A stretch of DNA of 60,919 nucleotides, the filler included, from Sanchytrium tribonematis (lineage: Eukaryota): NCBI GenBank assembly GCA_018985235.1. It is 7 parts of 7 records of this genome, joined end to end, with 100 filler letters (N's around TTAATTAATTAA, not from the genome) between each part and the next. Parts side by side here need not be neighbours in the genome. Positions count along the whole stretch, not along the records: positions 1 to 8,682 come from JADGIG010000366.1; positions 8,783 to 17,450 come from JADGIG010000367.1; positions 17,551 to 26,202 come from JADGIG010000368.1; positions 26,303 to 34,894 come from JADGIG010000369.1; positions 34,995 to 43,573 come from JADGIG010000370.1; positions 43,674 to 52,249 come from JADGIG010000371.1; 1 more part is not named here. One strand, written 5' to 3'. Position 1 is the first letter of the stretch; each line of letters opens with the position of its first letter. The notes beneath the pieces are model-generated. The model was not told the origin of the DNA. It did not search any database and worked only from the letters and a program-made list of their open reading frames with translations. This document shows positions 7,166 to 50,141 of the stretch, in pieces. The translations under genes were made by a program, and so were the position numbers.

Positions 7166-8361
7166 ATGACTCATATTCTGCTTTTATTAATCCCTATATT
7201 CTCTACTCAATCGTATTGGAGTGATAATTTCCAATATCCCATTCGGACAGAATCCAATTCGAATAAAATCAATTTAGTGATGCTAGCAGATGATTTTTAT
7301 AAAGTACCTTGTGGTAGACGGACAGCTGGATGGATACGGGCATTATGGCATGATTTTGGGACATTTGATCAATCTGATAATTCTGGTGGATTAGATGGCT
7401 CTATTCTCTATGAATTGGATAGATTAGAGAATACGAGACTGGATACACCCACGTATTACATTGCAAACAAGGCAAATGACTATAATGTGCCATTAAGTGA
7501 TGCTATTTATTTAGCAGGGATTATAGCCATACGAAGATGTGGTGGTCCTAAAATCCCATTTTATTATGGTCGTGAGGATGCAAGTGAAGCCAATCCAAGT
7601 GGGAGAATGTTGTTTACAAATGCCACTTTTGCAGATATGAAACAATTCATGGTCGTCAAAAATGGCTTCTCATTTCCCCAATTTGTGGCTTCTATTGGTG
7701 TCGGACACACTGTTGGTAAATTAAACAAAGATTTTGGACCTATGAAAGCAGGTGGACTGGATACTACCATTGATTCTCCAAATGCGTTTGATAATTTATA
7801 TTTTCAAAATTTATTGATTAATAATACAGATATTACCACATTTGCAAGTGATTTACAGCTATTAACAGATCCATATTCATTGAGAATGGTCAGAAGATTG
7901 GGTAGAAATCAACCATATTTCTTTAAATTGGCTAGGAGTGTCATGACATGGATGGGGACTGCTGGATGGTATATTCTAATTGATTTAGGGATGATTTGTA
8001 TTATATGGATGTATGGAAGTGGTTAGAAGCACCTAAATGTGACACACCTCAATTTATGGCACCTACTCAAAATATTCCACTTAAAGTGGATTCGAGTGTC
8101 ACAGGCAGTGCGTCACTGGATGGCACAGTCATGACAGATTCAAATATTACAGTCAATGCACAAGTCATTGCGAGTGATCAATCTAAAGGAAATGAAACAG
8201 ATAATTCTGTCGTGGATCCTTCAAAACAAGTGAAACCTGATGATAAAGTGGTACAGGCTAGTTTGGTAGATACGATGAAGCAAGCATTTGTGCCAGTACA
8301 GAATGAAAATGCTGTCAATGCAAGTGATTTACCAGTACCATCCCCAGTTGAATTAAAATAA
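7166..8361 (+). CDS. Secreted heme peroxidase (peroxidase-catalase superfamily), join(7166..7968,7989..8361)
   Basis: Signal peptide; distal RALWHD; GGLDGSI..ELDRLEN; CGGPKIPFYYGREDA; proximal GHTVG; FDNLYF; SDLQLLTDP. Removing the 20-nt intron joins the two ORFs in frame (GTAGW-DDLYYMDVW). Confidence 0.88.
7969..7988 (+). other. 20-nt spliceosomal intron GTATATTCTAATTGATTTAG
   Basis: GT-AG ends; removal restores the frame; matches the shared intron consensus. Confidence 0.85.
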
Positions 8362-8682
8362 ATTGAATTTATTACTTTAATTTAATAAATAACCGACATA
8401 GATCTTGAATGAATTTTTATCACGGAAATGATTTTGAATATCTGACATTGTATTGTAGCAGCTGTACATTTCAATATTTAATTTCTTGCAAATATCTACA
8501 TAGTCTGCATTGATTTCATGTTTATTATTATAATACATGTAGACTGCTAATTGGAGATAAATTAATATCCATCTATCGTAATTGACATGAACGGAATTAG
8601 AACCTAATACATCAGCAGTCTGTTGTAAATACGGTAAAGACAAGGGTTCCAACAACACATTTTCATCGAAATTATAGTTTTC

Positions 8683-8782
8683 NNNNNNNNNNNNNNNNNN
8701 NNNNNNNNNNNNNNNNNNNNNNNNNNTTAATTAATTAANNNNNNNNNNNNNNNNNNNNNNNNNNNNNNNNNNNNNNNNNNNN
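8683..8782. other. Artificial contig linker (44N-TTAATTAATTAA-44N); also at 17451-17550, 26203-26302, 34895-34994, 43574-43673, 52250-52349
   Basis: Identical 100-nt spacer with stops in all six frames; flanking contigs decrease monotonically in length (8682, 8668, 8652, 8592, 8579, 8576, 8570). Confidence 0.97.
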
Positions 8783-9109
8783 AGAAAGTTTTTACAGCAA
8801 TCTCAACGTGAATTAAAATATTTACATTTTATAAGTAGCAAACAAGCTCATCGTCTTTACTTTTATCACTTTTACACATTCCAGCATTATGATGACAGTT
8901 GGGATGTTGTCAGAGATGCAATGAAAGTGAAATCACAAGATCGATTGAATGATAAAACGGCAAATTTTATCAAAGACAGAAATTTTGTGTGTCACAATAT
9001 CAGCGGAATATCTTTAAATGTCGCCAAATTGATAAATTACACTAATATTTACAAAGATTTAGTCGTTGCTACAAATCAATGGGTTAAAAATATTGATTTT
9101 ATTAAATAA
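8783..9109 (+). CDS. Hypothetical protein, 5'-truncated by the contig edge
   Basis: Frame is open from the first base of the contig (RKFLQQSQREL...) to TAA at 9109, which sits within AATAAAT. Confidence 0.6.
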   Translation, partial: RKFLQQSQRELKYLHFISSKQAHRLYFYHFYTFQHYDDSWDVVRDAMKVKSQDRLNDKTANFIKDRNFVCHNISGISLNVAKLINYTNIYKDLVVATNQWVKNIDFIK

Positions 9110-9110
9110 A

Positions 9111-9902
9111 TTAATTTAAACTATTTTGTGGCACTTGTAAATTTGAGTGAAATGAATTCAATCGACTCAAACTATGATCATTTAAAGTCTCTAATAATTC
9201 ATCATAAAATTTAATGATAAATAAGCCACGTATCAAGTACGTAGACCCTCTTAAATGTCTGCTCATTTGCGCATTTAAAATAATAGAAATAATTAGTAAA
9301 ATATCCATGGAAATCAAAATAACAAGTGATAATGTCAATTCATACACTAATTTGAATTTATATCGATCTCTATATTTTAATATATCCAGTATTTTATAAA
9401 GTAAAATAAAATAAATTAAAATTTCTAAAATTGTAATGCAACTACTAAAAATAATAGATATAATGTAATTTATGGGCTTTAAAAAGGGATAAAAATAGTT
9501 TAAAATGCTTAGTGTATTGATGGGGACCATGCAGAATACGAAATACCAGGGTATTTTGTTGATAAATGCATCATATTTGGAATAAGTGCCTAGTGATTGC
9601 ACACGGACAGCGTAGAGCCAATTAACACTCATAATCATAATGTACCAACATATATTGCCTAGAATCAAGTGGAAATAAATGGTATATTGGAATTGAGTGA
9701 CTAAGATTTGAATAATTTCAAATAAAATGGAACTAAATAGACTGATTTGTAGAACATAAAAGAATTTACGCCTTTTATGAGGGAATACGAGGTATGATTT
9801 GCCAATTGCTTGTATAAATACAAATAAATCTAGGCCAAAGAGTGCAAAAATCATGATTTTGTAGGGATCTAGAGGTTCATTTGGTTGGAATTGAGGATGC
9901 AT
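9111..9902 (-). CDS. Multi-pass (~7 TM) membrane protein, GPCR-like topology
   Basis: About seven hydrophobic segments in 263 aa. Confidence 0.75.
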   Translation of the reverse strand: MHPQFQPNEPLDPYKIMIFALFGLDLFVFIQAIGKSYLVFPHKRRKFFYVLQISLFSSILFEIIQILVTQFQYTIYFHLILGNICWYIMIMSVNWLYAVRVQSLGTYSKYDAFINKIPWYFVFCMVPINTLSILNYFYPFLKPINYIISIIFSSCITILEILIYFILLYKILDILKYRDRYKFKLVYELTLSLVILISMDILLIISIILNAQMSRHLRGSTYLIRGLFIIKFYDELLETLNDHSLSRLNSFHSNLQVPQNSLN

Positions 9903-9952
9903 TATTTTATTTTGAAGCAGATTAAAGCTATTTTAATGAACCGTCTTTCAAT

Positions 9953-10912: not shown

Positions 10913-11033
10913 ATGAAAAAAGTGAAAAATCAATTTAAGTAATGTTAAACTCATATTTGAACACCAATTACAGGAAAATACTTTGCCCAGGGGGATCAGA
11001 AATGTGATTACCAAGTGATAATGGCCAATCAAA

Positions 11034-11441: not shown

Positions 11442-11477
11442 AAAATGGCAAATTTCAACAATATTTTTTCAAACAAA

Positions 11478-12854: not shown

Positions 12855-12855
12855 T

Positions 12856-14193: not shown

Positions 14194-14252
14194 TTTGAAA
14201 TAAAACTTGTGTTTCAAAGAATTTATTTATTTTCGCTCCCTAAAACATTTTC

Positions 14253-17670: not shown

Positions 17671-18010
17671 GCAAGATTTATAATTTCAAATCTCCTTGCT
17701 ATCACAGAAGTGGAATTTTACGAAAGGAGAAACTGTCGTTATATTCCATTCCTCAAATAAAAGTCGGAAATTTATAATCAATGGTAAGCCACTTACCAAC
17801 AATTTGTGGTGACAAATCCACGGTGACGGTGGTGACGGTTTGATAATTAACTATCAAATGTGCCACTTTCGATTATAAATTTCGTAATGAAACACCAATT
17901 CATTGCGAAAACAGCCAATCCCGCCTTTTAAACTGATCAAAGAAATTGCAAAACAAAAATTGTATATAATAAAATATATAAGGAGCAAAACAAGGTTTTA
18001 AATCACTTTC

Positions 18011-21005
18011 ATGTCAAAAAAACATCAAGAGAATTTCAAAAATCATCCATCCCCTATCTTGGAAGTTCCTTCAACCCCAAAATCTACGGCTGTAGCGGGG
18101 TCCCTTTCTTCCCCTCACTTGAGAACCCCCGTTAGATCAGGAAATCCTGATAGGTCAAATGTTACATTTGCTGATGAAATGAGCAAAGAGCTCGATAAAA
18201 TTTCCTACGACTCAGACAGAAAATCTACAACTTCTTCAAGGCTTACATCAAGTTCTATCACCCTTAAAGATATCGATAAAGATGGCCTTAAAATTGCTAA
18301 TGAATTACAATTCGCATCCTACAAAGTACCGGAAATCAAGGCCAGATTAAGAGATCGTGAAGACATCGCGAGGAGGCAAAAGGATCAATTTAACGAGAAA
18401 CCATTATTACCGAATCAAACTAGCCAAAATACAATTTTTGTAAAATCCCCTCGAAGCCGTGCTTCATTAATTAGAAAAGACACAACATGGGACAAAGGGT
18501 TTTGGACTCATTTATGCAGGATTCTCACTTGCTGTATCCCAGGATATCTCCTAAAGAGAATAGGTGGTATGGATAAACCAGAAGTACAACAAGCTTGGAG
18601 GGAAAAGGTTGGATTGTGTATGCTTTTTCTCTGCTTGATGGGAATGTTGGCATTTATTACTTTCTTAATATCGTTTGCAATTTGCCCAGAGACTTATGGA
18701 GATCAGATAATATCTCCCGAAAAACCAAATTTTGTAATTGGTACAAACACATTTTTGGCCAAAGGTCAATTATATCAATATGACGCCAAAAGATACACAG
18801 GGTTAGGTCTTTCTAACATCGACACAAATCAAAAAGACATTAGTCCCAAAATCATTTCAGATACTGGCGCTTCATATTGCTCTGCCATTGGCATCAAAGA
18901 TATGAACGTACTTTGTAATTCCGTCAAATGTGTCAACCAAGCTGAATTGAAAACTACTTTACCAATTGTTAAAAAGTATACCTGGGAATTTTTAACAAAT
19001 TCTACGACATTGTTCGTATACAATGGTTATGTTGTAGATAAAAGTGCTGCTGGGCTCAATTTGGATAAATATTTTTCTGGTTTGAAATCGAAATTAGCAA
19101 AATCGCTAGGAAAAGATGTCACATATGCATTTCGGCAGAATGATGACTTGATTAATGCGATTAGATGCTTCAGCGAACAATATAGAGTTGGATATATCGA
19201 TACCTCCACCACAGGATGTTTTATTCGTGATATTATTAGTAATATTGCCATGGTTGCTATTTTGAGCTTGATTATAATTAGATTTTCATTAGCCATTGGC
19301 TTTAGTTGGTTTCTGTCTTGGAAACTGGGCAAATGGGAATTGACACGCAAAGAGTTATTTGATCAACACGGAAACAAAGTGGGCAGTCAATCCAGTATCG
19401 ACTCGATCAAAAAGAGTTTAGCTGAAGGTGCTGCAGTGGATGCCATTCAGATCCCACCGGATTTTAGATTAATCTACTCTATTTTAATGGTCACTTGCTA
19501 TTCAGAAGATGAGGCTGGATTAAAAACTACTTTAGATTCACTTTGCAACATTCAGTATCCAAATAGATATAAATTAATTATCGTGGTTTGTGATGGTATT
19601 GTTAAAGGAGCAGGGCAAGACAAATCAACACCTGAGATCGTCTGTGGATTAATCAAAGAAGATAAAAGTTTTGGTACTCCAGAACCTAAAAGTTATTTCA
19701 GTATAGCGGACGGTAAAAAGAGACATAATATGGCTCGTATTCATTGTGGTCAATATGTATCTGAATTGGGTAGAAAAACCAATATTATAGTTATTGTAAA
19801 ATGTGGTACTCCAGAAGAAGCTACAGCTGGAAAACCTGGAAATAGGGGAAAAAGAGATTCTCAAATCGTATTAATGGATTTCTATAGAGCAGTTATGTTT
19901 GATGCTCCAATGAGTCCATTCCAATATGAACTATTCAACAAAGTATATAAATTATGTAAAGTGACGGCTGATAAATTTGAAATTGTACTGATGGTAGATG
20001 CTGATACGAAAGTGATGCCAGATGCGCTGAGTCATATGGCTGCTGTGGTTGCTAAAGACCCCATGATTATGGGTCTTTGTGGTGAAACAAGGATTATGAA
20101 TAAAGGAGAATCCTGGGTGAGTGCTATACAAGTTTTTGAATATCACGTTGCACATCATTTGGCCAAGGCATTTGAAAGCTGCTTTGGCGGTGTTACATGC
20201 CTACCTGGTTGTTTTTGTATGTATAGGATTAAAGCACCAAGAAATGACGGAACTTGGGCTCCTATACTGGCAAGTCCAGAAATTGTGGCTCAATATTCTG
20301 AAAATGTTGTGAACACTCTGCACAAAAAGAACTTGCTGCTACTTGGTGAAGACAGATTTTTGAGTACATTAATGTTGAGAACATTTCCAAACAGAAAAAT
20401 GATGTTTGTTCCAAAGGCGGTTTGTAAAACATGCGTCCCAAATAGCTTTCAGGTGTTATTAAGTCAAAGAAGAAGGTGGATCAATTCTACGATCCACAAT
20501 TTGTTTGAATTGCTGCTAGTTCAAGAGTTGTGTGGTACTTTCTGTTTTAGCATGCAATTTGTTGTATTTTTAGAACTAATTGGTACTTTGACACTACCTG
20601 CTGCTATTGTATTTACGACGTATTTCTAATTAATTTAGTGTTGTTATTATTAAATCCATTATTGGGCCTGTTGCGACCCAGCCATTATTACTACTAGCTG
20701 CAATTTTAGGTTTGCCTGGTTTACTGATATTTTTTACAACACAGAGACTAATCTATCTCAAATATATGATAATATATCTGTTTGCTCTGCCGATATGGAA
20801 TTTTGTATTACCTTCTTATGCATATTGGCATTTTGATGATTTTTCATGGGGTCAGACAAGGGCAGTTGCTGGTGAAAAGAAGGGGGAAGACCATGGACAC
20901 AAAGACGGAGAATTTGATGATAATGCTATTCCTTTACTAACTTGGAATGAATGGTCGGAAGCAGCGAATGAATTATTGTTGTCTGAAAATATAGCCCCAA
21001 AATAA
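18011..21005 (+). CDS. Chitin synthase, division 2 (class IV-like), join(18011..20619,20639..21005)
   Basis: AWREK, TCYSE, NRGKRDSQ, MVDADT, VTCLPGCF, LGEDRFL, QRRRWINST, WHFDDFSWG. Intron removal gives ...IVFTT-VVIIKSIIGPVATQPLLLLAAILGLPG. Confidence 0.95.
20620..20638 (+). other. 19-nt spliceosomal intron GTATTTCTAATTAATTTAG
   Basis: Contains the in-frame TAA that ends ORF 18011; removal restores the conserved C-terminal TM region. Confidence 0.92.
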
Positions 21006-21031
21006 ATTTATTTATCAAGGCCTGTTTGCAA

Positions 21032-22613
21032 ATGGGTGAAAAAACAGAAATAAGCACAGATAATCAAGAGCATCAAAATTTAACAGATGCTGCTCAAATT
21101 AAAAGAAAGCTAAATATATTGGCTAAAGAACAGCAGCAAATTGAAAGACAAATGGTTGATTTTCAAGATACTTCAAAAAAAGTATTAAAGAACCTGGAAA
21201 ATGATTCTGCTTATTATATCTCACATTTGAAAGACATTGAGCATAGTGCCATTGCTATTGAAAAGGAATTGGTAGAGAAAAAAGAGAGTGGTAAAAATGC
21301 GGAAACATTACAAGCCAAATTAAGGGAATATAAAAATGCTTTTCAAAGTATTAAAACAGAACAGCAAAAATTAACGCAGGAGATTCTGTCTGTTGAAATT
21401 GAACCTGATAATACTGCAAATGAACTGAAAGCTGTTGAAATAAGTTTTGAAAAAAATTTGAACAAATTTAACACGATTCGCTCTTCGAATGCGACACTAA
21501 GAGAAAAAATCAGCGACTTGGTGAAAGAAAAGAAACTTTTTGAGGAACAAAACCACAAATTGCTGGCTGATTTAAAATCTTTGAAGCTGAAGATAGCGCA
21601 GTCTATTGACGGCTGTAATCAAAATTTTGAACTGCGCGAAGAGCTCAAAATGAAAGTCTCGGCTTTGATGGATAAAAACGACAAGGAAAAAGCCCTGTTT
21701 CAATCTGAATTATTAGAACTAGAGAGGCTAATCAAAGAGAAACAAGAGGAAAAAGAGTTCAAAGCAACTAAACAAGAGATTCGAGATTTTGTTAATATTC
21801 AGGTAAGAAGTAAAAATGACATTAAAAGAGAAAATGACATACAACTTCTTAAAGAACTCGATGATTTTATAACATACCTGGAAACTTTTAAGGATTACAA
21901 GTCAAATTTTGTAAATGAATATCGAAGCCAAGAATTAGAAATACAATCAATATTTAAATTTCTATGTTTTGAAGCTATTTCCGAAGTGGACTTTAGCCGA
22001 ACGCATGGCAAGGCAAAAGACTTATCCGGCGAGACCTCTCATTTATTTTCCCGTGCTGAGGATACAAATGAGGATACGCATAGGGCGAAAGAATTAGAGA
22101 TGCGAGGAGATGCGTGGAATTCTCTTGCATCAGTGTCAGAAGTTTTAAATTTAGGGCTTTCTCTTGACAACGAGAAGAATTTTGATTATTTTTTAGCCAA
22201 GAAAATTGACCCACTGGTCTATTTCGCTGAAATTGAGTATGCAATTGATAAATTAACACTCAATGCGGCTCTGAAGAAAGCCATTATTGAAACCAACGAA
22301 GAATCTATCGGTAGTATTCGACACAACTCAGCATCGACTCTTTCGAGTGAAAAACCAACAAATGCTAAAGAACGCTTGATCATTGTTAACAAAACTCTTT
22401 TAGAGCCACCGCACTTTTCTGTGAAGACGTTTGCATCTATAGAGTATTTTAAATTAATTAAGATCATTTTTGGACGATAAAGAAGTAACTTTTGCCAAAC
22501 CCGAAGACATTCGAAAACTATTTCAGACTACACCAATGTCATTGCTAATGAAAAAGAACGGAAGATTGAAGTCTAAAACTACCGGAGCCAGCAAAAGTCG
22601 AACACTGCAATAA
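21032..22613 (+). CDS. Outer dynein arm docking complex subunit (ODA-DC2/CCDC114/CCDC63-like), join(21032..22443,22463..22613)
   Basis: Coiled coil with the family-like segment EKNLNKFN....NATLREKI.DL..EK...REELKMK...L..K.DKE..F..EL.EL.R.I. The spliced tail (E-SFLDDKEV...RTLQ*) ends in AATAAA, 11 nt from the convergent DHR1 stop. Confidence 0.7.
22444..22462 (+). other. 19-nt spliceosomal intron GTATTTTAAATTAATTAAG
   Basis: Matches the intron consensus; removal opens a 50-codon terminal exon that fills the intergenic gap. Confidence 0.7.
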
Positions 22614-22624
22614 AAGTACTACAA

Positions 22625-26116: not shown

Positions 26117-26576
26117 TTGCTGTTTATTCAAATACTTTTCTCTAGCCTCTCTTAACATCCAGATTTTTCGTTTTTCTAATTCAATTTGGCGTTGTGTAGG
26201 GTNNNNNNNNNNNNNNNNNNNNNNNNNNNNNNNNNNNNNNNNNNNNTTAATTAATTAANNNNNNNNNNNNNNNNNNNNNNNNNNNNNNNNNNNNNNNNNN
26301 NNTACGATTAGATCATTGAGATTATGGAATAATCAATTGACGGGAAGTATTCCAGATACGATTCCAAATCAAATGGTTGTATTTGCTGTTTCTAATAATC
26401 AATTGACGGGATTGCCGAGTGCATTCCCTAGTACTTTGAATTATTTGTATTTGAATGGGAACAAGTTTACTAAAATGCCTATATTGCCATCTTCACTCTT
26501 GGAAGTGTATTTTTACAATAATTTGATATCTGGACCATTACCCGCTACATTTCCACCGTCAATCAATATATTATAC

Positions 26577-26738
26577 TGTCTTGATGAGTTGATGGATGAA
26601 TCAATTCCATCAGAAGATGTGCAAAATGGTGTAACAGATGATCAGATGAGTGATCATCTGGATGTGAATGATGTGATTGAGTTACTTTATAAAGAAGAAT
26701 GACATTAATAAATACTTTGGATAACATGCCAGAAAATA
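26577..26738 (+). repeat. 5' LTR
   Basis: Begins TGTC; identical to 30485-30646; TATAAA at 26688, AATAAA at 26707. Confidence 0.93.
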
Positions 26739-29700
26739 CTATTTCGGAATCTAGTCAAAAATGCATTATTGACTATAAATTTAATGAAAATGAGGTTTCT
26801 TTTTCAACTTGGCACGAAGGTTTCTTGAGTCTTGCGCAGGCACTTGCTGTACCGCAAACAATGTACTTTAGAGAAATGATGAAGAATCTGAGCCAGCAGC
26901 ATGTGAGCTACGCTATGAGCGTACTCAAAGGTCACGCCAGTTATTCAGAATTTGTGAGAGTTCTGACATCTAGATATGTTCTTGATGTTAAACCTGTTGA
27001 TTTTTATCAAATGAAACAAGGTAGTAGCTCTGTGGAAGTCTATGCAGATAAATTGCAAAGATGCTCCACAATTGCTGGAATTAAAGAAGATGACTTGATT
27101 GATCATTTCAAGGCAAGTCTCCGTGATGAGATTTCAATTGTGTTGATTTCATCACAGTTTGGAAGCTGGGTGGCTGCCAGAAGAGCAGCTTTGGATATTG
27201 AAAAGAGATTAGGCAACAAGGAAAAAGAATCCATTGGTAATGGATATTGCTTCCATTGCAAGATCACTGGCCATTTTACTCGAAACTGTCCAGTCAAGAA
27301 CATGGTGTGCTCAAAATGCAAGGTTAAAGGACATATTGCCAAAGATTGTCCTCAAAGAGATCCTGATCAAGAAAGAGAGAGATCTAGAGATGTGACAGTG
27401 AACAACATTCAAAATGATACTGATACAGTAAATATCAGTTCCAATTATTTAGATGTTCATTTTGATCAAATTGCTTTTAAAACTTTACTTGACACTGGTG
27501 CTGATTGTTCCTGTGTAAATGAGTCTTTTGCAAAAGCAATGAAAAGACGAATAATACCTGCTGATGCTAATTTATTAGGTGGAGGTAATCCTATTCCAGT
27601 GATTGGCAAAATAAGATGCTCTATTAGAGTGGATGGTTTGAAGGCTATTCCCCATGAATTCTTTGTTTTAAGTGGTACGTATCCCGCTCAACCCATATTG
27701 GGAAAGGATTTCATCTTTGATAAGCTAAATGCCAGAGTGATATTGGGCAATCGAGACTTGGAAGTGAATCATATAACTAAAGAAGCACTTGAAAAGATGA
27801 AACACAAATTGGGTCATTTGGATCAATGTCATCAAGACATGCTGATGGATATCTTTGAGAAATATGAATTTGACATCATGAAACCCATTGATGTTCTCCC
27901 AGTTTCTATCAGACTCAAAAGGGATGCGAATTTGGATAGTTTGCGTCAAAAACCATATAATGAGCCATTTCCTGAAGAAAGGGATGCTATTATTGAGAAA
28001 TATAAGAGTAGAGGGTTTATATTTGAGCAATCTGGTCCATATTGCTCACCTGCCTTCATTATTAAACAAAATGGGAAATGCAGAATGGTAATAGATTACA
28101 GAAGAGTGAATCTCAACACAATTGCAGATGGATCACCCATTCCTAGAATAGATGAGTTGATTCAACGTGTATCTGGATATCTTTATTATACCGTATTTGA
28201 TTACGAAACTGGTTTTAATCAGATCCAAGTCACGCCAGAGACGTCAGTAATTACATCATTTGTCACTAGCAAGTCGCAGTATTACAGTGATCGGCTCGGC
28301 CAAGGATTGAAGCAATCCGGTGGTCTGTTTCAACACACGACATCCCAGTTGACATCTGAAATCGAGAATCTAGCTCAATATATTGATGATGTGATTATAT
28401 ATGGTAATGATCTACAGCAGCACTTGAAAGATGTCCAGAGATTTGTCGAGATTTGCTCAGATAAGAATATTATTTTAAAATTGGAGAAATCGCAGATTTG
28501 TCAGAAGCAGGTTGATTTTTGTGGATACTCTGTGAGTGGTGATGGATACAAGGCTAAGGAGTCATATCTTATCAAAATAGACTCAATTGGATCACCTACT
28601 AGCAAAAAGAAGGCACAAACTTTATTGGGGATGCTTGGATGGATTAGACACTTTATACCTATGTTTGAAGATGTGATAGCACCCATTAGACAGACAGTGA
28701 CTTCACTTGGTAGATTTCAATGGTCAGATGAAGCAGAATGTGCTCTGCGTACGAGTATCGAATTGGCTCAAAACCACACAATTTCAAATATTGAGGATGG
28801 CGTTCCTTGTGAACTCTTTGTAGATGCGTCAAAGCGCTCTGTTGGTGGGGCACTGTTCCAAGATGGCAGATTAGTTGGATTATTTAGTAGAAAACTCAAT
28901 TCAAGCATGATTGGCTGGGATGCATTTGAGTTAGAATTGTTTGCAATCAAGATTGGACTGGATAAATTTGGTAAATTTCTTGGCGGCAATGAAGTACTTA
29001 TCAAATCAGACAATGAAGCAGCCATTTATCTATTAAACGGCCAAGGAAGGAAAAAATCTCCGAAAATCTACAGATGGATTGAATCTATTCAGAAATATTC
29101 ATATTCCGCAGTCCACATCAGTGGCAAGTCAAACAGCATTGCGGACATACTCTCTAGATTAGATCACATGGAGAATGCTGCTGGAGTAGATGATTACCAG
29201 AATTTGGGCATTAACCAAGTGGAGACACGATCCAAAAAAAGAGCTAGAATGGAGGAGGAAAAGGATACTGACATTGTACCAGAACCAGCAGTAGCACCTG
29301 TAGTGGATCCTCTACGTGATTTAGCTAAATGCCATTGCAATTTGAATTTGAGTGACAAATTTGTCAAATGTATCAGATGTGGATTGGGTACTCATTTGAC
29401 ATGTATTGGATGGTTATATACGGTAGACGCATTTCAATGCAAGTCTTGCATGGATTTAATGATCAATCCAGGGGCAGTTGATTCAAAACAGGAGCAGCAG
29501 CAACTTTTAGAAAAAGCACATTTATCTCATCCAGGGATACACGGCATGAGAATCCTACTAAAGAACTATAAATGGCCAGGTAAGGACCAGAATATTATCA
29601 GCAAAGTGACTCAGTGTCGGCATTGTAAACAAAAGATGCCACCCAAAATGAGTGATTTGCAATTCAGATTGCCAAAATACGTTAATCACTACTGTGGGAT

Positions 29701-30610
29701 AGATTTAATGAGCATAAATGATGACCAAATAGATTATAGATACTTGGTATGTGTGAGAGAGTACGTGACAGGTGCCATCTCAATTTACCCAACAATGACA
29801 AAGGAGCCCAAAGACGTACTAGCGGGTTTATTAAAGTACGTAGCAGCGTATGGACCAATGGCAGTGTTGTGTGCTGATAATGGTAACGAATTTAAAGGGT
29901 TATTTGCAAGATATTGCAAACAAATGGGAATTGTGATGCAGACGACAACCAGCAAGATACACCATGAAAATGGGTATGCAGAATCAGCAGTAGCCTTGGC
30001 AAAGATGAATATAAGAATGGCAAGATTGGAATATCCAGATTTACCATTTGGAACAATTGTGGAATTAGCAAATTCTTGGGTGAATGCAAATCCAAAGAGT
30101 AGCACAGGTATTTCCCCAATTTCACTAATGACATTGACATCAGGCATGATTGAGAGTGGTCAAATTGGACAACCACTTGACCAATACGTCCGTGAGCAGA
30201 TTATAAAAAGAATTAATGAAAATAAGGTGAAATCCCAAATTAAATTAAATAGAGGGTATAGAAGTGTAGAGTTACAAGAAGGGGATATGGTGTGGTATTA
30301 TCCACCTGACCAGAAGTTGAAATTGAAGGAAATTGCCTTGTTGGCTAGAATTGAGTCAAAATTGAGAGACAAGCAGTATTCCATCGCTATTAAAGACCAG
30401 GAAGTGCTTAAAGTGGCACACAAAGACAGTTTAGTGTTGATTGACACACCTACTGACGAATTGATTCAGTCTTTTCATGGGGAATGTCTTGATGAGTTGA
30501 TGGATGAATCAATTCCATCAGAAGATGTGCAAAATGGTGTAACAGATGATCAGATGAGTGATCATCTGGATGTGAATGATGTGATTGAGTTACTTTATAA
30601 AGAAGAATGA
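26699..30610 (+). CDS. Gag-Pol polyprotein (capsid, 2 CCHC knuckles, protease, RT, RNase H, PHD finger, integrase)
   Basis: CFHCKITGHFTRNC, LLDTGADCS, YIDDVII, FVDASKRSVGG, SDNEAA, NSIADILSR, HLSH...CRHC, GIDLM / ADNGNEF / NGYAES. Order PR-RT-RH-IN. Alternative start at 26726. Confidence 0.95.
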   Translation: MTLINTLDNMPENTISESSQKCIIDYKFNENEVSFSTWHEGFLSLAQALAVPQTMYFREMMKNLSQQHVSYAMSVLKGHASYSEFVRVLTSRYVLDVKPVDFYQMKQGSSSVEVYADKLQRCSTIAGIKEDDLIDHFKASLRDEISIVLISSQFGSWVAARRAALDIEKRLGNKEKESIGNGYCFHCKITGHFTRNCPVKNMVCSKCKVKGHIAKDCPQRDPDQERERSRDVTVNNIQNDTDTVNISSNYLDVHFDQIAFKTLLDTGADCSCVNESFAKAMKRRIIPADANLLGGGNPIPVIGKIRCSIRVDGLKAIPHEFFVLSGTYPAQPILGKDFIFDKLNARVILGNRDLEVNHITKEALEKMKHKLGHLDQCHQDMLMDIFEKYEFDIMKPIDVLPVSIRLKRDANLDSLRQKPYNEPFPEERDAIIEKYKSRGFIFEQSGPYCSPAFIIKQNGKCRMVIDYRRVNLNTIADGSPIPRIDELIQRVSGYLYYTVFDYETGFNQIQVTPETSVITSFVTSKSQYYSDRLGQGLKQSGGLFQHTTSQLTSEIENLAQYIDDVIIYGNDLQQHLKDVQRFVEICSDKNIILKLEKSQICQKQVDFCGYSVSGDGYKAKESYLIKIDSIGSPTSKKKAQTLLGMLGWIRHFIPMFEDVIAPIRQTVTSLGRFQWSDEAECALRTSIELAQNHTISNIEDGVPCELFVDASKRSVGGALFQDGRLVGLFSRKLNSSMIGWDAFELELFAIKIGLDKFGKFLGGNEVLIKSDNEAAIYLLNGQGRKKSPKIYRWIESIQKYSYSAVHISGKSNSIADILSRLDHMENAAGVDDYQNLGINQVETRSKKRARMEEEKDTDIVPEPAVAPVVDPLRDLAKCHCNLNLSDKFVKCIRCGLGTHLTCIGWLYTVDAFQCKSCMDLMINPGAVDSKQEQQQLLEKAHLSHPGIHGMRILLKNYKWPGKDQNIISKVTQCRHCKQKMPPKMSDLQFRLPKYVNHYCGIDLMSINDDQIDYRYLVCVREYVTGAISIYPTMTKEPKDVLAGLLKYVAAYGPMAVLCADNGNEFKGLFARYCKQMGIVMQTTTSKIHHENGYAESAVALAKMNIRMARLEYPDLPFGTIVELANSWVNANPKSSTGISPISLMTLTSGMIESGQIGQPLDQYVREQIIKRINENKVKSQIKLNRGYRSVELQEGDMVWYYPPDQKLKLKEIALLARIESKLRDKQYSIAIKDQEVLKVAHKDSLVLIDTPTDELIQSFHGECLDELMDESIPSEDVQNGVTDDQMSDHLDVNDVIELLYKEE

Positions 30611-30646
30611 CATTAATAAATACTTTGGATAACATGCCAGAAAATA
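30485..30646 (+). repeat. 3' LTR
   Basis: Identical to the 5' LTR; encodes the last 41 aa and the stop codon of Pol. Confidence 0.93.
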
Positions 30647-32138
30647 TACGCATATAACAATCTGATTAATGGGACGATTCCTAGTGGGCTACCGAATTCA
30701 ATGGATCAATTGGATTTGTCAAATAATAAATTACAAGGGGCGATTCCGTATCCATTGCCATGGCAGTTGCTGGTGTTACAATTATCAGGAAATCAATTGA
30801 CTGGGTTGCCTACAGCATTTCCTAGTGTGAGTGGATTGTATTTAAAAGGTAATTTATTCACTAAAATGCCTGTTTTACCATCTTCTGCCATATACGTTGA
30901 TTTCTCTAATAATTTGATTAATGACAGATTACCTAATGTATTCCCAAGTAGCTTGACGGAATTTAGAGCATATAATAATCTGATTTATGGATTTATTACG
31001 AATTTACCATCTTCTTTGAAGCAATTGGATTTGAGTCATAACCAATTAGAAGGCAGTATTCCAATTTTACCAAATCTACTGAATTATTTGGTGTTGGATT
31101 ACAATTTATTAACGGGTAATATACCAAATACATGGCCAGCAGGGTTGACCAAATTCACAGCAAGTCATAATCAACTATCTGGTAGTATTTTGAGCATTGA
31201 TTCAACGACTAGTTTCTATATTTTGGATTTATCTTACAATTTATTCACTGGGAATCTACCCATCTTCAAATATCAAACTTATTTGATCTTATATTTAACA
31301 AATAATCAATTGAGTGGGGATATAAATGTGGGATATTCCACAGTGAATGATTTTAGATTGAGTTTCAATAAATTCACAAAATATCCAAAATCATTCCCAC
31401 AAGCCATTAAAATCGTATTTTTGGATAATAATCAAATGTCAGGTAATATTACAAGTGATTTCCCATCTACATTGAATTATATTGACATTTCAAAGAATAA
31501 TTTGACTGGTTACATTCCAAATTGGCAAAATCCAACTCAAAATTATTTTAATGCGTCTTATAATTTATTCACTGGTACGATCCCATCTTCACTTCAAAAT
31601 GTGAAAACAATGGATATCTCTCATAATTATTTGAGTGGATGCATCAATTTCCAATTCACTGGGGGTTCTTTTCAATTGAATGACAATTTGTTGAATGGAA
31701 ACATGTCATTTTTCAAGCCATATCTGTTGAATTTACAGAATAATAAGATTGTGGATGTATCCATCTCAGATACGTCTATATTGCAGAATTGTAATTTGAG
31801 TAGCAATCCATTGGCACCTGGAGTGTTTGGTAAAACATTTCAAAATTCGTGTATTTTGAATGGCATGTCTGTTGGGAATAGTACTTGTAGAATCATCTCA
31901 TTAGATGAAATATTTGCAACTAAGACTGATGCACCAAGTACAACTATAGCAACAACCACGATTTTGACATCTAGTTCTATTTCTACATCTAGTTTCAGTT
32001 CTACGCCAATCCAGACATTTCTACAAGATGTCACGCGTATTTCTAGCATTCTAGTCGATACCACAAGTGTGTCTGACTCTGTATCGACTAGCACTACGTC
32101 AGTAGACGAAATGACTTTTCAAGAATCTCAAATCACTC

Positions 32139-32157
32139 GTATTTCATATTTATATAG
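32139..32157 (+). other. 19-nt spliceosomal intron GTATTTCATATTTATATAG
   Basis: Removal joins the S/T stalk to the TM-encoding frame (ESQITR-PTRILPTKIDVTTSY). Confidence 0.85.
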
Positions 32158-32586
32158 GTCCCACTCGCATATTACCCACCAAAATAGATGTGACTACATC
32201 CTACATCACTCAAATCACATCCACAATCCCAAAAACCATGCTCACGACTACCATTTCACTCTCTTTCATCCAACCCACTCAATTTGCACAAATTGATTTA
32301 TCCTATATAAAAATGATTAGAGTCGTGATTTCTGCAATCGTATTTGGTGCTATTTCACAGCAATTAATATTAAATATACGACATTGGAGAAAACAGAAGC
32401 CAAAAGTGGGTCATCAAACTGGAATTTGAATAAATGAATCTTATTTGAGGAATTTAAACGAATAGCCAACAGTAACAAGTGGCGAGTGCTTGGTATGAAT
32501 TTATTTGTTTAATGAATGACAGGAGTGTTTTGGTGTGACCACATGCTTCCCCATTTGTCATAAAAGAGACAGACAGTACCTTCCCC

Positions 32587-40039: not shown

Positions 40040-40893
40040 TGTTACTTTCGTAGCTGTATTTCCCAAAAAAAAATTAAACCTGTTTTAATTAAAACAATAG
40101 ATACTACAGGTATATCACAAACCGCGGAACTGCAAAGGATATTGAAGATGTTTTATTAGAAATTGGGATTCGCAAAGTAGTGGGCGTTGTAACAGATAAC
40201 GCGGCCAATATGCAAGCAGCATGGCGTATCATTGAAAATAAATATATTGGCCTCATCTGTAATGGATGTGGTGCCCATTCTTTGAACTTGCTTGTCAAGA
40301 ATATTTGCAATATGGAACAATACAGTGGAACAATTGAACTAGCAAAGAGTATTACAAGATTTATAAATCGACTAGGATCAGTGAAGAAACGATTTCAAAT
40401 AATTCAGAAAAATATGTGACTTAGGTGAAAATAAAGTCAAAACAAGGAATACAATACATCGTTGAAACCCGTTGGTATTCACACTACGGCTGTATTGAAA
40501 TGGTTTTAAATAATAAGAAAGTGCTACAATAATTGAAGGACTCTGGTTTAGTTCTAGGAATGAGTGGAAAAAACAAAAACATAAATTAAAAACAATTGAA
40601 AACTATTTTAAAGCCTACATCTGTGCATATTGGTATCGCTAATTAATTTAGGAAAATTTGAATCCGAAATTTGTGATCTAGCAGATGTTTATGATTCTTT
40701 TCTAAATTTAAAAGATGCTTCGAAAAACCATGAAACATTAATCAAGTTGTTACATCAAAGATGGGCATTTTTACACACCGAATCCATGGGATTTGCTTAC
40801 TTTTTAAATCCAAAAACTGGTGCTGGTAATACCGTACAGTGTACGGTACACTTTCAAACCCTAGTGAGAACAGACTTGATAAAGTCTATCTAG
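40040..40893 (+). pseudogene. hAT-superfamily transposase remnant
   Basis: VVTDNAANMQAAW, CxxH motif (GCGAHSLNLLVK), ETRWYS, AYFLNP; broken frames. Confidence 0.8.
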
Positions 40894-43674: not shown

Positions 43675-46600
43675 AATAAATTACCAGATGCCCATTTAAT
43701 ACGCATTGGAAGCAAGGGATATCTGGATAAGATTGAGAAATGTGTAAGTGAAGGGATTGTTTGCATTTTAGAGGATGTGAATGAGCAATTAGACCCAGTT
43801 TTAGATAATATTATTTGTAACAATAAAATCAAGAAAAATAGATATTACATTTTAGGAGATAAAGAAGTTGAAATACACCCACAATTTAAATTGATTTTAC
43901 AAACAAGACTGCCTAATCCACACTACACACCAGAGATACAGGCACAAACTTGTTTAATTAATTTTACAGTCACTTTGGAGGGATTAGAAGATCAATTGCT
44001 TGCTGATGTGGTGAATGTAGAGAGAAGTGAATTAGAACAAAGTAGAGCTGAATTAACAAAACAACAAAATGAATTTAGGATCAAATTATTGGAATTAGAA
44101 AATAATCTATTAAATAAATTAAGCAGTGCCCAAGGCAACTTTTTAGGTGATACGACATTGGTAGAGAATCTAGAGATCACTAAAAAGACTGCCATTGAAA
44201 TAGAACATAAAGTAAAAGAGGCTATAAAGACAGAAATACATATTAATGAAACGCGTGAAATTTATAGACCAGTGGCAAATCGAAGCAGTATGCTCTATTT
44301 TCTATTAAATAGCATGTGGATGATCCATCCCATGTATCAATATTCTTTAAAATCCTTTAAAAATGTGTTTTTTAGAGCCATTCAAAAATCTGAAATTGCA
44401 GAAGATGTAAAGGATCGTGTCAAGAATTTAATAGAAACCATCACATTTGAAGTATTTGTATATACTACTAGAGGGTTATTTGAGAGTGATAAATTAATAT
44501 TTACTTCTCAAATGGTGTTTAATATCATGTTGAAGGATCAAGAAATAGATTCAAATGATTTAGACTATTTATTAAGAAGTCCTAGAGAAATGGCCAATAG
44601 TCCAATAGATTGGCTATCTGATTCACAATGGCAATTATTAAAAGCACTTTCTAAAATTGAAGCATTAAAAGATTTAACAAATGATTTAGAGGGATCTAAT
44701 AAAAGATGGAAGAAATATGCAGAATTAGAAGCACCAGAGAATGAGAAACTACCATCTGATTGGAAATCTAAATCTGCTATTCAACAATTATGTATTTTAA
44801 GAGCATTGCGACCAGATCGTATTTTATATGCGTTACGTCAATTTATAAGCACTAAAATAGGAGATAAATTCGTAAATGGAAATAGATTGCCATTTGCACA
44901 AACTTATTTAGAATCTAGCCCTATCATTCCAATCTTTTTTATTTTATCACCCGGAGTTGACCCCGTGAAAGACGTTGAACAAGTTGGCAAATCTTTGCAA
45001 ATTGGTACAGAATTCAACAACTTTTACAATATCTCATTGGGTCAAGGACAAGAAATAGTAGCAGAGAAAGCACTGGATATGGCTGTTAAACAAGGTGGCT
45101 GGGTGATGCTTCAAAATATACATTTGGTAGCAAAATGGCTTCCTGTTTTAGAGAAGAAAATGGAGGAATTATTTCAATTAGAAGACATCCATCCCAATTT
45201 TAGACTATTTCTGAGTGCAGAACCAGCAGCAGATCCATTATATCACATTATTCCAACTAGTATTTTACAAATATCTATCAAAATTACAAATGAAGCACCT
45301 ACTGGCATGAAAGCCAATCTACACAAGGCATTAGACAATTTTAATCAAGATGCGTTAGAAAGATGCTCAAAAGAAAGTAGAATTTAAATCAGTCTTGTTT
45401 TCACTTTGTTATTTTCATGCTGTGGTCGTAGAAAGAAAGAAGTTCGGTGCAATTGGTTGGAATAGGAGTTACCCATTTAATAATGGTGATTTGGCCATAT
45501 CTGTGGATGTTTTATTCAATTATTTGGAAGGATTTGCAAAAATACCATGGGATGATATTCGATATATTTTTGGTGAAATTATGTATGGTGGACACATTTC
45601 TGATGATCTAGACCGTAGATTATGTGCGACTTACTTGCAGGTATATGTACGTGAGGAATTATTTGATACTTCTTTGCAATTTGCACCCAATTTTCATGCG
45701 CCACCCAGTTTGGATTATTTAGAATATCACAGATATATTGATGAGAATTTACCAGCAGAGAGTCCATTATTGTATGGCATGCATCCAAATGCAGAAATAA
45801 ATGTTCAAACTATTACAAGTGAGAAATTATTTACAACCATGTTGGAATTACAACCCAAAGAATCTCAAGCACAAGGGGGTCTTTCTAAAGAAGAGAAATT
45901 AAAAAACATGATTGAAGAAATGGTGCAACAAATTCCTGATCCATTTCGGGAAATTGGTGGTAAAATAGAAGAGAAAACACCATTTACCAGTGTTTGTTTG
46001 CAAGAATGTGATCGAATGTCTAAAATATTAATAGAAATGAAGAGATCTTTAAAAGAATTACTATTAGGACTCAAGGGAGATTTGAGCATTACTGATTTAA
46101 TGGAACAAATGATGCAATCTCTGTATTTTAATAAAGTGCCAGAAAATTGGATAAAATTGACTTGGCCATCTACATTTAGTTTAAATCAATGGTTTATTGA
46201 TTTATTAGCCAGATTTAAACAATTAGAAACTTGGAGTCAAGATTTTAATGTCCCACTGGTTGTTAATTTGTCATTTTTATTTAATCCTCAAGCATTTTTA
46301 ACTGCTGTGATGCAAACTACTGCACGTAAAAATGAATGGCCATTGGATAAAATGACATTAAATATAGATGTATTGAAGAAACAACGCGATGAAATCCAAC
46401 AGGGACCTCGAGATGGCATTTTTATGGATGGACTGGTGTTGGAAGGGGCAAGATACGAAGGCGGATTGGTGGATTCTAAAATGAAAGAATTGTATTTTAC
46501 AATGCCAGTGATCCATGTCAAAGCAGTTCCAATTGATAAAGCAGATTTAAATGGATATTCATGCCCTATTTACAAAACAAAACAACGTGGTCCAACTTAT

Positions 46601-46681
46601 ATTTGGTCATTAAATTTAAAATCAAAAGATCCAATTAATAAATGGGTGCTTGGTGGGGTGTCTATGCTGCTCATTAGTTAA
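43675..46681 (+). CDS. Axonemal outer-arm dynein heavy chain (beta-type), C-terminal part, 5'-truncated; one-base frameshift at ~45376
   Basis: LPNPHY.PE, INFTVT..GLEDQLL, FFILSPGVDP, SLGQGQ, WVMLQNIHL, CYFHAVV.ERKKFG..GWNRSYPFN.GDL, GEIMYGGHI.DD.DRR, CPIYKT..RGPTYIW, KWVLGGVSMLL. Confidence 0.93.
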
Positions 46682-46707
46682 TAAATTTGTTTATGTTGAG
46701 TCAAAAT

Positions 46708-47427
46708 TTATTCATTTAAATTCACTGTCAAATATTGATGGTCTTTATCCACAATTCCAAGTGATTTTAATGTATTACAACAGTCTTTTAATGCTTTATT
46801 GTCAAATATAGACATATCGGATGGATACTGAATCATTTTATACGATTCTTTATTTTTGTGTTTTAATAAATCCAAATGGTTCAATCTAGTCATTTCATTT
46901 AACATGACTAATAAATCATGCTTGTGCTGTACAATATCCGGATGACACGCAATATAAAATGAAGGCCATGGACTGTCAATGGTTCCCATGATTTCAGATT
47001 TATCAATTAATGGCAAAGTCGTGAAATATTCCCATAAAAATGCATCAATCTCACCTTTTCTTAAATGATCCAATAATCCATTGATATCTTGACATACCTT
47101 GAAGTTAAATTGGATTCCATCTCTATTTTTGAGTAAATGGCCCATTAATTCACTTCCACTGCCAACTCTGGATATTCCTAATGTTTTAATCTGTTTTGTG
47201 GATGGTTTATTGCCACAGATCATCCATGTAATGGGATTGATCATGTACTGGCCAATGATGGGATATTTGCCACTTTTAACAAATCCTTCTGTTAATCCAA
47301 TAGCCACATCAATCTCACGCTTATTGAGCAGATCTAACATTTGACCAGTGCCACCAGGACAAATAGTCGTCATATGTTGAATGGAAGCAAAGAATCTTTC
47401 AGGGACACAACCAATTCGAAATGACAT
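46708..47427 (-). CDS. Type 2 periplasmic-binding-fold protein (NMT1/THI5-like, fungal Ca3427-like)
   Basis: IGCVPE, PGGTGQM, IDVAIGLTEG, GISRVGSGS..M, DAFLWEYFTT, SPWPSF. Confidence 0.75.
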   Translation of the reverse strand: MSFRIGCVPERFFASIQHMTTICPGGTGQMLDLLNKREIDVAIGLTEGFVKSGKYPIIGQYMINPITWMICGNKPSTKQIKTLGISRVGSGSELMGHLLKNRDGIQFNFKVCQDINGLLDHLRKGEIDAFLWEYFTTLPLIDKSEIMGTIDSPWPSFYIACHPDIVQHKHDLLVMLNEMTRLNHLDLLKHKNKESYKMIQYPSDMSIFDNKALKDCCNTLKSLGIVDKDHQYLTVNLNE

Positions 47428-47450
47428 GGGGTAAATTTTGAAAATTATTT

Positions 47451-47999
47451 TTATTTTTCTTTGACTTTAAAAGTCACAAATTTCTTGGTTTTACCGCATT
47501 TGCTATTCCAGATCTTGCATGTAATAGACAGTTTTAATGTACAAGTACCCACCATATTGTGAGTCAGTTGCACATCGCGTTCAAAAGTGGCAGTACTCAC
47601 AAACATGTTCCAAAATGAGTATTCATATTTGAATAGCCGATGCAGCGTATCTTTGAATACGACGTGCTTCAACCCGCTACCACAGGTGACTGACAATTTG
47701 ACGTCGTACGTCGAGAAATAGTTGACTCGGTTGCTTGATAAAATAATTTTTAAATTTTCACCCACATTATATTTTTCTTGCGTTTTTGGGTTTGGAGACA
47801 CTATCTTGATTAATGGGTCATATTCCTCTCTTATCAAATGATCATTTGCACCTACACGTGGTCTGTTCGCTTCTTGCATAGTCCCTATAGCAAATTTGAA
47901 AACTACAGGCCAAACGGACTGTTGATAGCTTGGATCTCTACGTCCGTGATTATAACCTCGTCGATCTGGCAGTGCAAATAGAAGCAACAAATAAATCAT
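47451..47999 (-). CDS. Small secreted protein with a beta-sandwich-like domain
   Basis: ATG at 47999 gives MIYLLLLFA; IKIVSPN....YNVGENLKI; paired Cys residues. Confidence 0.65.
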   Translation of the reverse strand: MIYLLLLFALPDRRGYNHGRRDPSYQQSVWPVVFKFAIGTMQEANRPRVGANDHLIREEYDPLIKIVSPNPKTQEKYNVGENLKIILSSNRVNYFSTYDVKLSVTCGSGLKHVVFKDTLHRLFKYEYSFWNMFVSTATFERDVQLTHNMVGTCTLKLSITCKIWNSKCGKTKKFVTFKVKEK

Positions 48000-48247
48000 T
48001 TCAAGGAGCAGCTCGAGTTTTCTCCAACTTGAGAGGTGATTTGATGACAATCACGTTTTCTCCCAAATCATTAAAAATTAAAATGTGAGAAATCCGATGG
48101 GATTAATTGGATATTATTCCATGGTACCAATATTTTAATAAACGACGTCAATGGTCCATCACTATCTCATCCAATCAAATGCAATACGTCGCCATCACAT
48201 GCTGTTTCTATCCAAATGTCAAGGGGCAACATTCAAAACATCTTCAA

Positions 48248-50141
48248 ATGGACTCCCCTCAAGTAGATAACTCAAGATTAATGGACAAGAAATGGCAAGA
48301 TGTTCAAAAGAAAACATTCACCAAATGGGTCAACTCTAAATTGCAACTTCAAAAACTAAAAATCAGCGATTTAGTGACTGACATGACAGATGGTGTCAAA
48401 TTGATTGAATTATTAGAGATTATTGGTGATGAGAAACTCGGTAAGTTCAATAAGACCCCTAAAATGCGTATCCAAAAGGTAGAAAACTTGAATTTAGCTC
48501 TGGCATACATTAAATCCAGAAATGTCCCAATTACCAATATTGGTGCTGAAGATATTCTAGATGGAAATGAGAAACTGATTATGGGTTTGATCTGGACTAT
48601 TATTCTTAGATTCTCCATTGCAGATATCTCAGAAGAAGGATTAAGCGCAAAAGAAGGTTTATTGCTTTGGTGTCAGCGTAAAACTCAAGGTTATCAACCA
48701 GATGTGAATATTAAAGAATTTTCATTCAGTTGGCAAGATGGTTTGGCATTCTGTGCATTAATTCACCGTCACAGACCTGATTTATTAGATTTCAGCACTT
48801 TGAACAAAAAAGACCGTCATGGCAACATGGAAATGGCATTTAGCATTGCTGAGTTGAAATTAAACATCCCAAGATTATTAGATCCTGAGGATGTCATTGA
48901 TTTGGCTAAACCTGATGAAAAATCCATCATGACCTACGTGGCTCAATATTTCCACGCATTCAGTTCTATGGACAAGGTAGAAGTATCTGGTAGAAGAGTG
49001 GGTAAATTTAGTGATTTATTGATGACAGCGTGGAACATGCAGCATGATTATGAAGAAAGATGCGCCACATTGACAAAATCTATTGAATCTAAAATCCAAT
49101 TTTGGAACTCTGCTAAATTCACAAATACCTATGAAGATGCTAGAAATCATTCAGATCAATTCTTACAATTCAAATCTACTGAAAAAAGAAACTGGATTGC
49201 AGAAAAGAGAGAATTGGACACTTTATTGAGTAATATTCAAACTAAATTGCAGACTTATGAATTGCCTGCTTACCATCCACCTCAAGGATGCACTCCTGCT
49301 GATTTAGATCATATTTGGGCTGATTTAGTGGCTAAAGAAAAGATTAGAAAAGCCAATATTAATGGAAAATTAAAGGAAATTAAAGATGCTTTGCAACAAC
49401 AATTTGCAACAAATGCCAATCAATTGGTTAATGAAATCAACAAGATCAGTGCTGATATTGCTGGTGTAAGTGGAGAATTGGAGGAACAGCAACAAGTCGT
49501 CAAGAGATGTTGGACTGAATTAGAGAAATTACAAGACAAATTAGTAGTTTGTGATGCAAATGAGAGAGAGTGCTTGGCAGCTAATGTCACAGAGAATGAC
49601 TACACAGTTTACACCACAGATGATTTGCATTTTGATGTTTCATTATTGCAACAAGTGATTAAACGAAAAATGGCATTTATTGAAAACCAAATTGTGGCTA
49701 AAAAGAACATGTCTGGATTAACCCCACAACAATTGGAAGAAATTGACAAGACATTTAGACATTTTGATAAAGATTCTAGCAATTCATTGACATTGGCTGA
49801 ATTTAAAGGAGGTTTAACTGGTTTGGGTCAAGTATTAGCAGATCCTGAGAAATTATTCAAGGAATTGACACAGGGCAATGAAACTATGAATTTTCAACAA
49901 GTATTTTCAATTGACGTAGTTTAGTTTGTATATGAAGAGTATTTTGGAAGACAGAACCACTAAGCCACAAATTATGGCTGCATTTAGTGGTATTGCCAAT
50001 AACAAGTCATTTATCACGGATCAAGATTTATTGATGGCCAGATTGGAACCAGCTACTTTGAGTTATTTGAAATCAAAGATGCCTGCTGTAGATGGCGGAT
50101 ATGACTACAAGGCATTCTTGGATAGCATTTTCCATCAATAA
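48248..50141 (+). CDS. Alpha-actinin (2 CH domains, 2 spectrin repeats, EF hands), join(48248..49900,49920..50141)
   Basis: QKKTFTKWVN, GLIWTIILRF, LLLWCQRKT, PDEKSIMTYV, FRHFDKD, YDYKAF. Splicing gives MNFQQ-FSLYMKSILED. Confidence 0.95.
49901..49919 (+). other. 19-nt spliceosomal intron GTATTTTCAATTGACGTAG
   Basis: Phase 0; removal restores the conserved EF-hand helix F..F..YM. Confidence 0.92.

Follow-up and report, generated by a model that had tools for sequence, protein, structure and literature searches.

Very probable spliceosomal introns of 19–20 nucleotides in the genes of a sanchytrid fungus

In a 60,919-nucleotide stretch of Sanchytrium tribonematis DNA (GCA_018985235.1; hereafter the window), five protein-coding genes are each interrupted by a GT-AG insert of 19 or 20 bases. 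We regard these inserts as real ultra-short introns, with a probability of about 0.9, and predict that they are removed by the major (U2-type) spliceosome. The window is composed of seven contigs of ~8.7 kb each, separated by N-linker spacers, with a GC content of 33.6%. A direct check found GT...AG ends in all five segments, which lie on four of the seven contigs, and the coordinates, lengths (20, 19, 19, 19 and 19 nt), ends and last ten bases listed in the original prediction, made from the sequence alone, were right in every case. Removal of each segment links 285–872 upstream open codons to 50–124 downstream, compared to 3–52 downstream codons when the segment is left in place. The stop codon reached after removal lies in or beside an AATAAA in all five genes, versus none of the five unspliced stops; by both measures, each insert repairs a frame or extends it to an AATAAA-linked stop, as had been claimed. 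In the comparison sets, AATAAA was found in or beside the stop at 9 of 17 other open reading frame (ORF) ends and at 391 of 7498 background triplets. Stops that overlap or abut AATAAA, as at those nine ORF ends, occur at gene ends across the window, and the spacers between genes are very short.

Homologous proteins span the junction of three of the inserts. These are the 20-nt intron at 7969–7988 (plus strand, phase 2) in a heme peroxidase-domain gene (~7112–8361, Pfam peroxidase), the 19-nt intron at 20620–20638 (plus strand, phase 2) in a chitin synthase gene (~18002–21005), and the 19-nt intron at 49901–49919 (plus strand, phase 0) in an alpha-actinin gene (~48107–50141). In these three genes, 0–45 nt were deleted at every nearby position and the resulting translation was scored without gaps against homologues. 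Over 12 junction-homologue tests the claimed length was the clear best in eight and the claimed length minus one codon in two, with two tests uninformative, and a GT..AG was among the top-scoring placements in six of the eight clear tests. The removed lengths fixed by homologues are 20 nt (peroxidase), 19 nt (chitin synthase) and 19 nt (alpha-actinin). For the peroxidase, the best length was 20 nt against P0249 and P0250 and 17 nt against P0251. In chitin synthase the Pfam profile is split at 418/419, and 54 of 55 residues over the junction are identical to P0124 after removal; in alpha-actinin the best length is 19 nt, with GT..AG among the tied placements, against both P0121 (38 of 55 residues identical) and P0004.

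The frame breaks could instead reflect assembly errors of 1–2 nt, or chance GT-AG segments lying near such errors. The window does contain at least one true 1-nt frame break, in a dynein gene, as well as many decayed genes, and 75 GT..AG segments repair a frame without regard to any motif. A 1–2 nt indel, however, was the best fit in none of the 12 tests, the same breaks recur in other species, and the chitin synthase insert is spanned gap-free by one contig of run X1; for the three segments with homologues this explanation fails, and overall we consider it highly improbable. The dynein break serves as an internal control: near position 45376 the match to DNAH9 ends at 4044 and resumes at 4045, with zero residues lost. 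Because no residue is missing relative to DNAH9, this break is a 1-nt insertion, and such insertions and the intron class separate. A 16-nt GT..AG segment at 45377 would also repair the dynein frame but deletes conserved residues, and was rejected in favor of the 1-nt insertion. A further frame break at 5970–5989 (minus strand), considered as an exon boundary, was judged by eye to part two tandem paralogues instead. These paralogues (4859–5989 and 5970–6971, minus strand) have no Pfam match and have in common an N-terminal hydrophobic segment.

The remaining two segments are probable introns. The first, of 19 nt in phase 2 at 22444–22462 (plus strand), lies close to the 3' terminus of an ODAD1-like coiled-coil gene (~20987–22613) and matches the intron motif, and its removal lengthens a 12-codon frame to 50 codons, closing at an AATAAA stop; no homologue was found over this junction, as the listed best stretches of 59 distant matches end by query residue 368. 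The second, of 19 nt in phase 1 at 32139–32157 (plus strand), lies in a leucine-rich repeat (LRR) gene (~30620–32429) and has a deviating branch site, TTTAT. Its removal yields a Ser/Thr-rich stalk, a hydrophobic helix, a basic tail and an AATAAA stop, with a mean hydropathy over the helix of 1.93 versus −0.56 when unspliced.

The pattern proposed with the original prediction has 7 matches in the window where 0.19 are expected (reached in 0 of 100 shuffles), but it was derived from the same five segments; the two extra matches fall in decayed genes. With a textbook branch-site pattern (GTAT...YTRAY-NN-AG), 19-nt segments matched 4 times, where the mean was 0.22 (0 of 100 shuffles), and 20-nt segments once (27 of 100 shuffles), while the remaining lengths from 13 to 40 nt showed no excess in the window. 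A motif-blind scan for frame-repairing GT..AG segments of 12–80 nt returned the 75 candidates mentioned above, all five segments among them; none of the longer ones has independent support, in line with the earlier statement that the window holds no longer intron. That all lengths are indivisible by three was also correctly reported, but as a general rule it is partly a matter of ascertainment, because stop-free introns of 3n length break no frame. Nothing points to an in-frame 3n intron in alpha-actinin or in the peroxidase, and the N-terminus of chitin synthase shows 6–10 residue gaps versus one of three relatives only. The observed density is five introns in 30.4 kb (21 long-ORF units), or ~0.16 per kb as a lower bound, with at most one intron per gene; a density of 1.30 per kb is given for Allomyces, by a different method (PMC8476143).

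Both extra motif matches had been overlooked and are possible introns. A 19-nt, phase 1 match at 945–963 (plus strand) lies in a decayed LRR-stalk-transmembrane gene and is followed by a hydrophobic helix at a distance similar to that seen for 32139; against an in-window paralogue, removed lengths of 16, 13 and 19 nt score alike. The other 19-nt match, at 40633–40651 (plus strand), is in a decayed transposase-like region with a DUF659 match nearby. Its removal extends one frame from 4 to 80 codons, with only 14 open codons upstream; if an intron, it would be a tiny intron within a mobile element.

Evidence from related organisms extends the set. When a gene call continues into an intron it captures the opening bases of that intron, so that the introns of relatives can be deduced from the tails of their predicted proteins. 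In chitin synthase, a break at the same codon and in phase 2 occurs in four of five clade relatives, Amoeboradix included, while one reads through. The same-codon break is also found in 4 of 114 other homologues, Rhizophlyctis rosea among them (17 could not be anchored), where the donors, as judged from the stop codon, would be GTAA, GTAG or GTGA. A break common to the clade and a chytrid points to an old fungal intron position, and the chitin synthase intron is therefore likely to occupy an ancestral position, as an old fungal intron shrunk in place. Compared to the window, run X1 carries two substitutions inside this insert, at intron bases 6 and 7, which leave the motifs intact; in exon 2 there are three changes among the 40 of 49 differences listed, all synonymous in the spliced frame.

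The alpha-actinin proteins of Amoeboradix and P0003 break at the codon interrupted in the window. P0121, which belongs to P0003's 90% cluster and comes from a 1890-nt contig, continues through the junction. Read in a shifted frame, the next exon matches the tail of P0003 over 11 residues, that of P0247 over 14–15 and that of the Amoeboradix protein P0245 over 6–8, matches equaled in 0–1 of 2000 shuffles in all six comparisons. The implied inserts measure 22 nt (P0003), 19 nt (P0247) and 19 nt (P0245). In all three, GT comes first, the 3' end falls on the earliest AG available and an A is forced at position −6 from the 3' end; 14 of 61 codons would force that A. The implied 19-nt introns of P0247 and P0245 sit at a peroxidase site where the window has none, and thus provide an out-of-sample test. 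Conversely, the 7969 site is uninterrupted in all three peroxidase relatives, making that intron a candidate for recent gain, and the peroxidase gene appears to show precise gain or loss at two sites. In P0002, the Amoeboradix alpha-actinin, the last 4 residues would fit a 15-nt intron with A at −6 if the stop is TAG, or an intron of ~20 nt with the stop as part of the branch site if it is TAA or TGA. The P0248 peroxidase breaks at a third site, which fits a 26-nt intron with A at −6 if the stop is TAG.

An A at −6 had been predicted as a fixed feature, and it is present in all five window segments, each of which closes at the first AG after this A, and in the three implied introns of relatives. 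It falls within YTRAY in four of the five segments, one deviating (window sites TTRAY/TTTAT). The ATT described alongside it as invariant is so in the five window segments but varies across the clade, because the corresponding regions of the relatives read ATHTAY, ACNAAY and GCNCAY; only the A at −6 is common to all. We interpret the ATT motif, from its sequence, as an AT-rich form of the ordinary fungal WCTRAY branch site. The reported lack of a polypyrimidine tract was borne out in 5 of 5 segments, with two bases between the branch motif and the AG. The donor lacks a G at +5 in seven of seven cases, the two extra motif matches included, and length and an anchored branch site therefore likely carry the specificity. 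As a working model, U2 snRNA would pair with the AT-rich WCTRAY-type branch site at intron bases 9–15, and the A six bases from the 3' end would attack the weak GT donor only 13–14 bases upstream, forming a lariat loop of 14–15 bases. The position of the 3' cut would be set by a fixed distance from the branch site rather than by a pyrimidine tract, and intron length would supply much of the specificity. In this compact, intron-poor genome, at least one of these introns likely goes back to a longer, ancient fungal intron, reduced where it stood.

The machinery involved is less certain. The original prediction inferred a modified or reduced spliceosome, and real introns could be spliced by machinery that is strongly reduced or lacks U1, as in microsporidia or Mikrocytos. 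The donor is weak, with no G at +5, and the geometry very tight; Mikrocytos mackini, a rhizarian, combines introns of 16–17 nt with a spliceosome of 17–19 proteins (PMC10245619). A spot check was made in the automatic annotation sheet for Amoeboradix gromovi (3,755 rows; supplementary file 4 of PMC8371127). This sheet lists Prp8, Brr2, SF3B1, both U2AF subunits, Prp5 and Prp22, as well as Luc7, a Prp40-like protein, Isy1, Cwc25, Snu40, Snu13 and cactin, with weak matches to U1-70K and to an SF1-like KH protein. Snu40 and Cwc25 are among the factors often lost elsewhere (PMC10158995). Ten of 12 KEGG numbers had rows in the sheet, the number for Prp16 only in rows labelled PRP22; there were no rows under the numbers for Prp28 and U1C. 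Six names were also searched, of which CWC25 and LUC7 were present and PRP28, DDX23, YJU2 and one phrase were not found. The absence of Prp28, Yju2 and U1C by label is consistent with reduction, but such absence is a weak argument because gene calls may ignore introns. The U1, U2AF, SF3B1, Prp8, Isy1 and Cwc25 components listed leave the proposed reduction unsupported and argue against loss on a microsporidian scale, with room for local changes. From these annotations, a fairly complete spliceosome like that of Stentor is likely, rather than the stripped one of microsporidia, and strong reduction seems unlikely.

Alternatively, the genes might be pseudogenes inactivated by the inserts, or the inserts might mostly stay in the RNA, like the short introns of Encephalitozoon cuniculi, which are ~25 nt long and poorly spliced (PMC6349667, PMC3629993), at under 20% (PMC6349667). 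Two motif matches lie in decayed genes, and the LRR gene is seemingly interrupted upstream by a retrotransposon, yet the downstream exons are conserved across species and accumulate synonymous changes, which makes either version improbable; the introns may be partly retained. Non-spliceosomal removal, by an Ire1/HAC1-type or tRNA-type endonuclease, or programmed ribosomal bypass has very little to recommend it: introns of the first two types are structured and 19–26 nt long, a similar length, and those of the Ire1/HAC1 type have stem-loops at both cut sites, but at none of the five junctions is there a fold better than shuffles (z 0.04 to 1.24), and the GT-AG ends, the branch-like motif and the position common to an ordinary chytrid gene break speak for a spliceosome.

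Several points weigh against the interpretation of the inserts as U2-type introns. The introns are known here from comparison of DNA and protein alone, and two of the five lack a homologue test across the junction; those of relatives are deduced from protein tails rather than DNA. The read-through proteins P0121 and P0124 may stem from transcripts, from alleles that lack the intron or from gene calls that allowed for it, and X1 may be the window's own sample, with 9 of its 49 differences outside those listed. The branch A is placed by its position in the sequence only, and both 32139 and 945 deviate from YTRAY. No snRNA was seen in the window, which gave 0 Rfam matches, and the list of spliceosomal proteins is a spot check of an automatic annotation from another species, with weak matches for U1-70K and SF1.

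The window's alpha-actinin and chitin synthase are 80% and 81% identical, respectively, to the proteins of A. gromovi. In an alpha-actinin tree (quick version; SH-aLRT 100) and a chitin synthase tree (support 100/100), they form a long-branch clade with A. gromovi beside Blastocladiomycota, which by sequence marks the window organism, a parasite of algae, as a sanchytrid distinct from A. gromovi. Reported genome sizes in this group are 10.5–11.2 Mb, with ~35% GC (PMC8371127). Proteins P0123, P0124, P0126, P0127, P0003 and P0121 represent at least four environmental relatives inside the sanchytrid clade, making the group wider than the two described species; a metagenome scan with alpha-actinin returned one unrelated locus (30% identity). 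The placement in Sanchytriomycota by two protein trees, far from ciliates, Rhizaria and myxozoans, agrees with the independent origin proposed earlier, and the sanchytrid introns likely add one more independent origin to a kind already described.

Comparable systems are known. The introns of the heterotrich Stentor coeruleus are 15–16 nt with the branch A six bases from the 3' end (PMC9505925). The sanchytrid introns resemble them in their GT-AG ends, A at −6 by position, AT-richness, narrow length range and apparently fairly complete spliceosome; they differ in length (19–20 nt, with 19–22 implied in relatives), in predicted loop (14–15 nt versus 10 in Stentor), in having a recognizable YTRAY-type branch site, and in belonging to a fungal lineage unrelated to ciliates. 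A branch site anchored to the intron 3' end is known from Yarrowia lipolytica, Trichomonas and Giardia (PMC2483917). Like Y. lipolytica, the sanchytrid has no pyrimidine tract, two bases from branch motif to AG (5 of 5) and an intron-poor genome, but Yarrowia has rather long introns, a strict ACTAAC and a GTGAGT donor, whereas the introns here are tiny, with a degenerate branch site and a weak donor; of all the sites, just that of the implied Amoeboradix intron could read ACTAAC. Chlorarachniophyte nucleomorph introns are nearly identical in length range (18–21 nt) and likewise GT-AG and AT-rich, but number 3.1 per gene and have no discernible branch A (PMC6009652), unlike the clear A at −6 and the sparse distribution of at most one intron per gene and ~0.16 per kb (a lower bound) seen here. 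M. mackini is also a parasite with introns of tiny, narrowly distributed length and conserved sequence, but these are shorter, its spliceosome is small, and it belongs to Rhizaria. Microsporidia and myxobolids (median intron 22 nt; PMC13644364) share with sanchytrids an opisthokont parasitic lifestyle, reduced genomes and introns <30 nt, with the donor reduced to GTa in myxozoans. The sanchytrid introns are shorter, their hosts group with Blastocladiomycota and not microsporidia, and they lie deep in coding sequence, unlike those of E. cuniculi, which are next to the start codon. Every ingredient is thus known, but the combination in a fungus at 19–20 nt was not found in the literature covered (titles and abstract starts, with subscription journals outside coverage), nor was any description of sanchytrid introns. 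In the main text of the sanchytrid genome paper "splic" is absent and "intron" occurs once, in a reference title (PMC8371127), and the available part of PMC10459994 holds nothing on them. These segments, very likely introns, are the shortest that we have found described for a fungus.

Other features of the window touch the same genes. A Ty3/gypsy-like retrotransposon ORF (26693–30610, within 26259–32429, plus strand), bounded by a repeat seen near 26700 and again near 30600, separates two LRR-coding pieces, as though it had landed in the LRR gene bearing the 32139 intron. The ODAD1-like gene (20987–22613, plus strand; Pfam ODAD1_CC), directly behind chitin synthase, would encode an outer dynein arm docking-complex protein, which is unexpected with a non-motile flagellum. 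The contig of the sanchytrid alpha-actinin also carries, at 43675–46681 (plus strand) and with the 1-nt insertion described above, the C-terminal portion of an outer-arm axonemal dynein heavy chain, matching DNAH9/DNAH17 best. Sanchytrids are reported to lack axonemal dyneins (PMC8371127); this piece could be a gene that was overlooked, a pseudogene of recent origin or a fault of the assembly.

Tentatively, and at slightly less than even odds, these observations can be combined: no fungus or animal would have shorter introns than the sanchytrids as a whole, in which intron length would be clamped at ~19–22 nt. Ancestral introns would have shrunk in place while still being precisely gained and lost, and a largely complete, U1-containing spliceosome would use a fixed branch site as its measuring point, while U1/U6 or the branching factors would carry compensating changes. 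For the published sanchytrid proteomes, TransDecoder was applied to genomic contigs (PMC8371127), and in Amoeboradix the entries for alpha-actinin, chitin synthase and peroxidase stop at intron-like breaks; truncated or missing proteins may therefore affect claims of gene loss in this phylum. The lower size limit of spliceosomal introns is an open question, for which the known cases below 22 nt come from ciliates, Rhizaria and nucleomorphs. A fungal case, with longer orthologous introns likely in chytrids and a spliceosome near the yeast models, would let one ask what allows a 14-base lariat.

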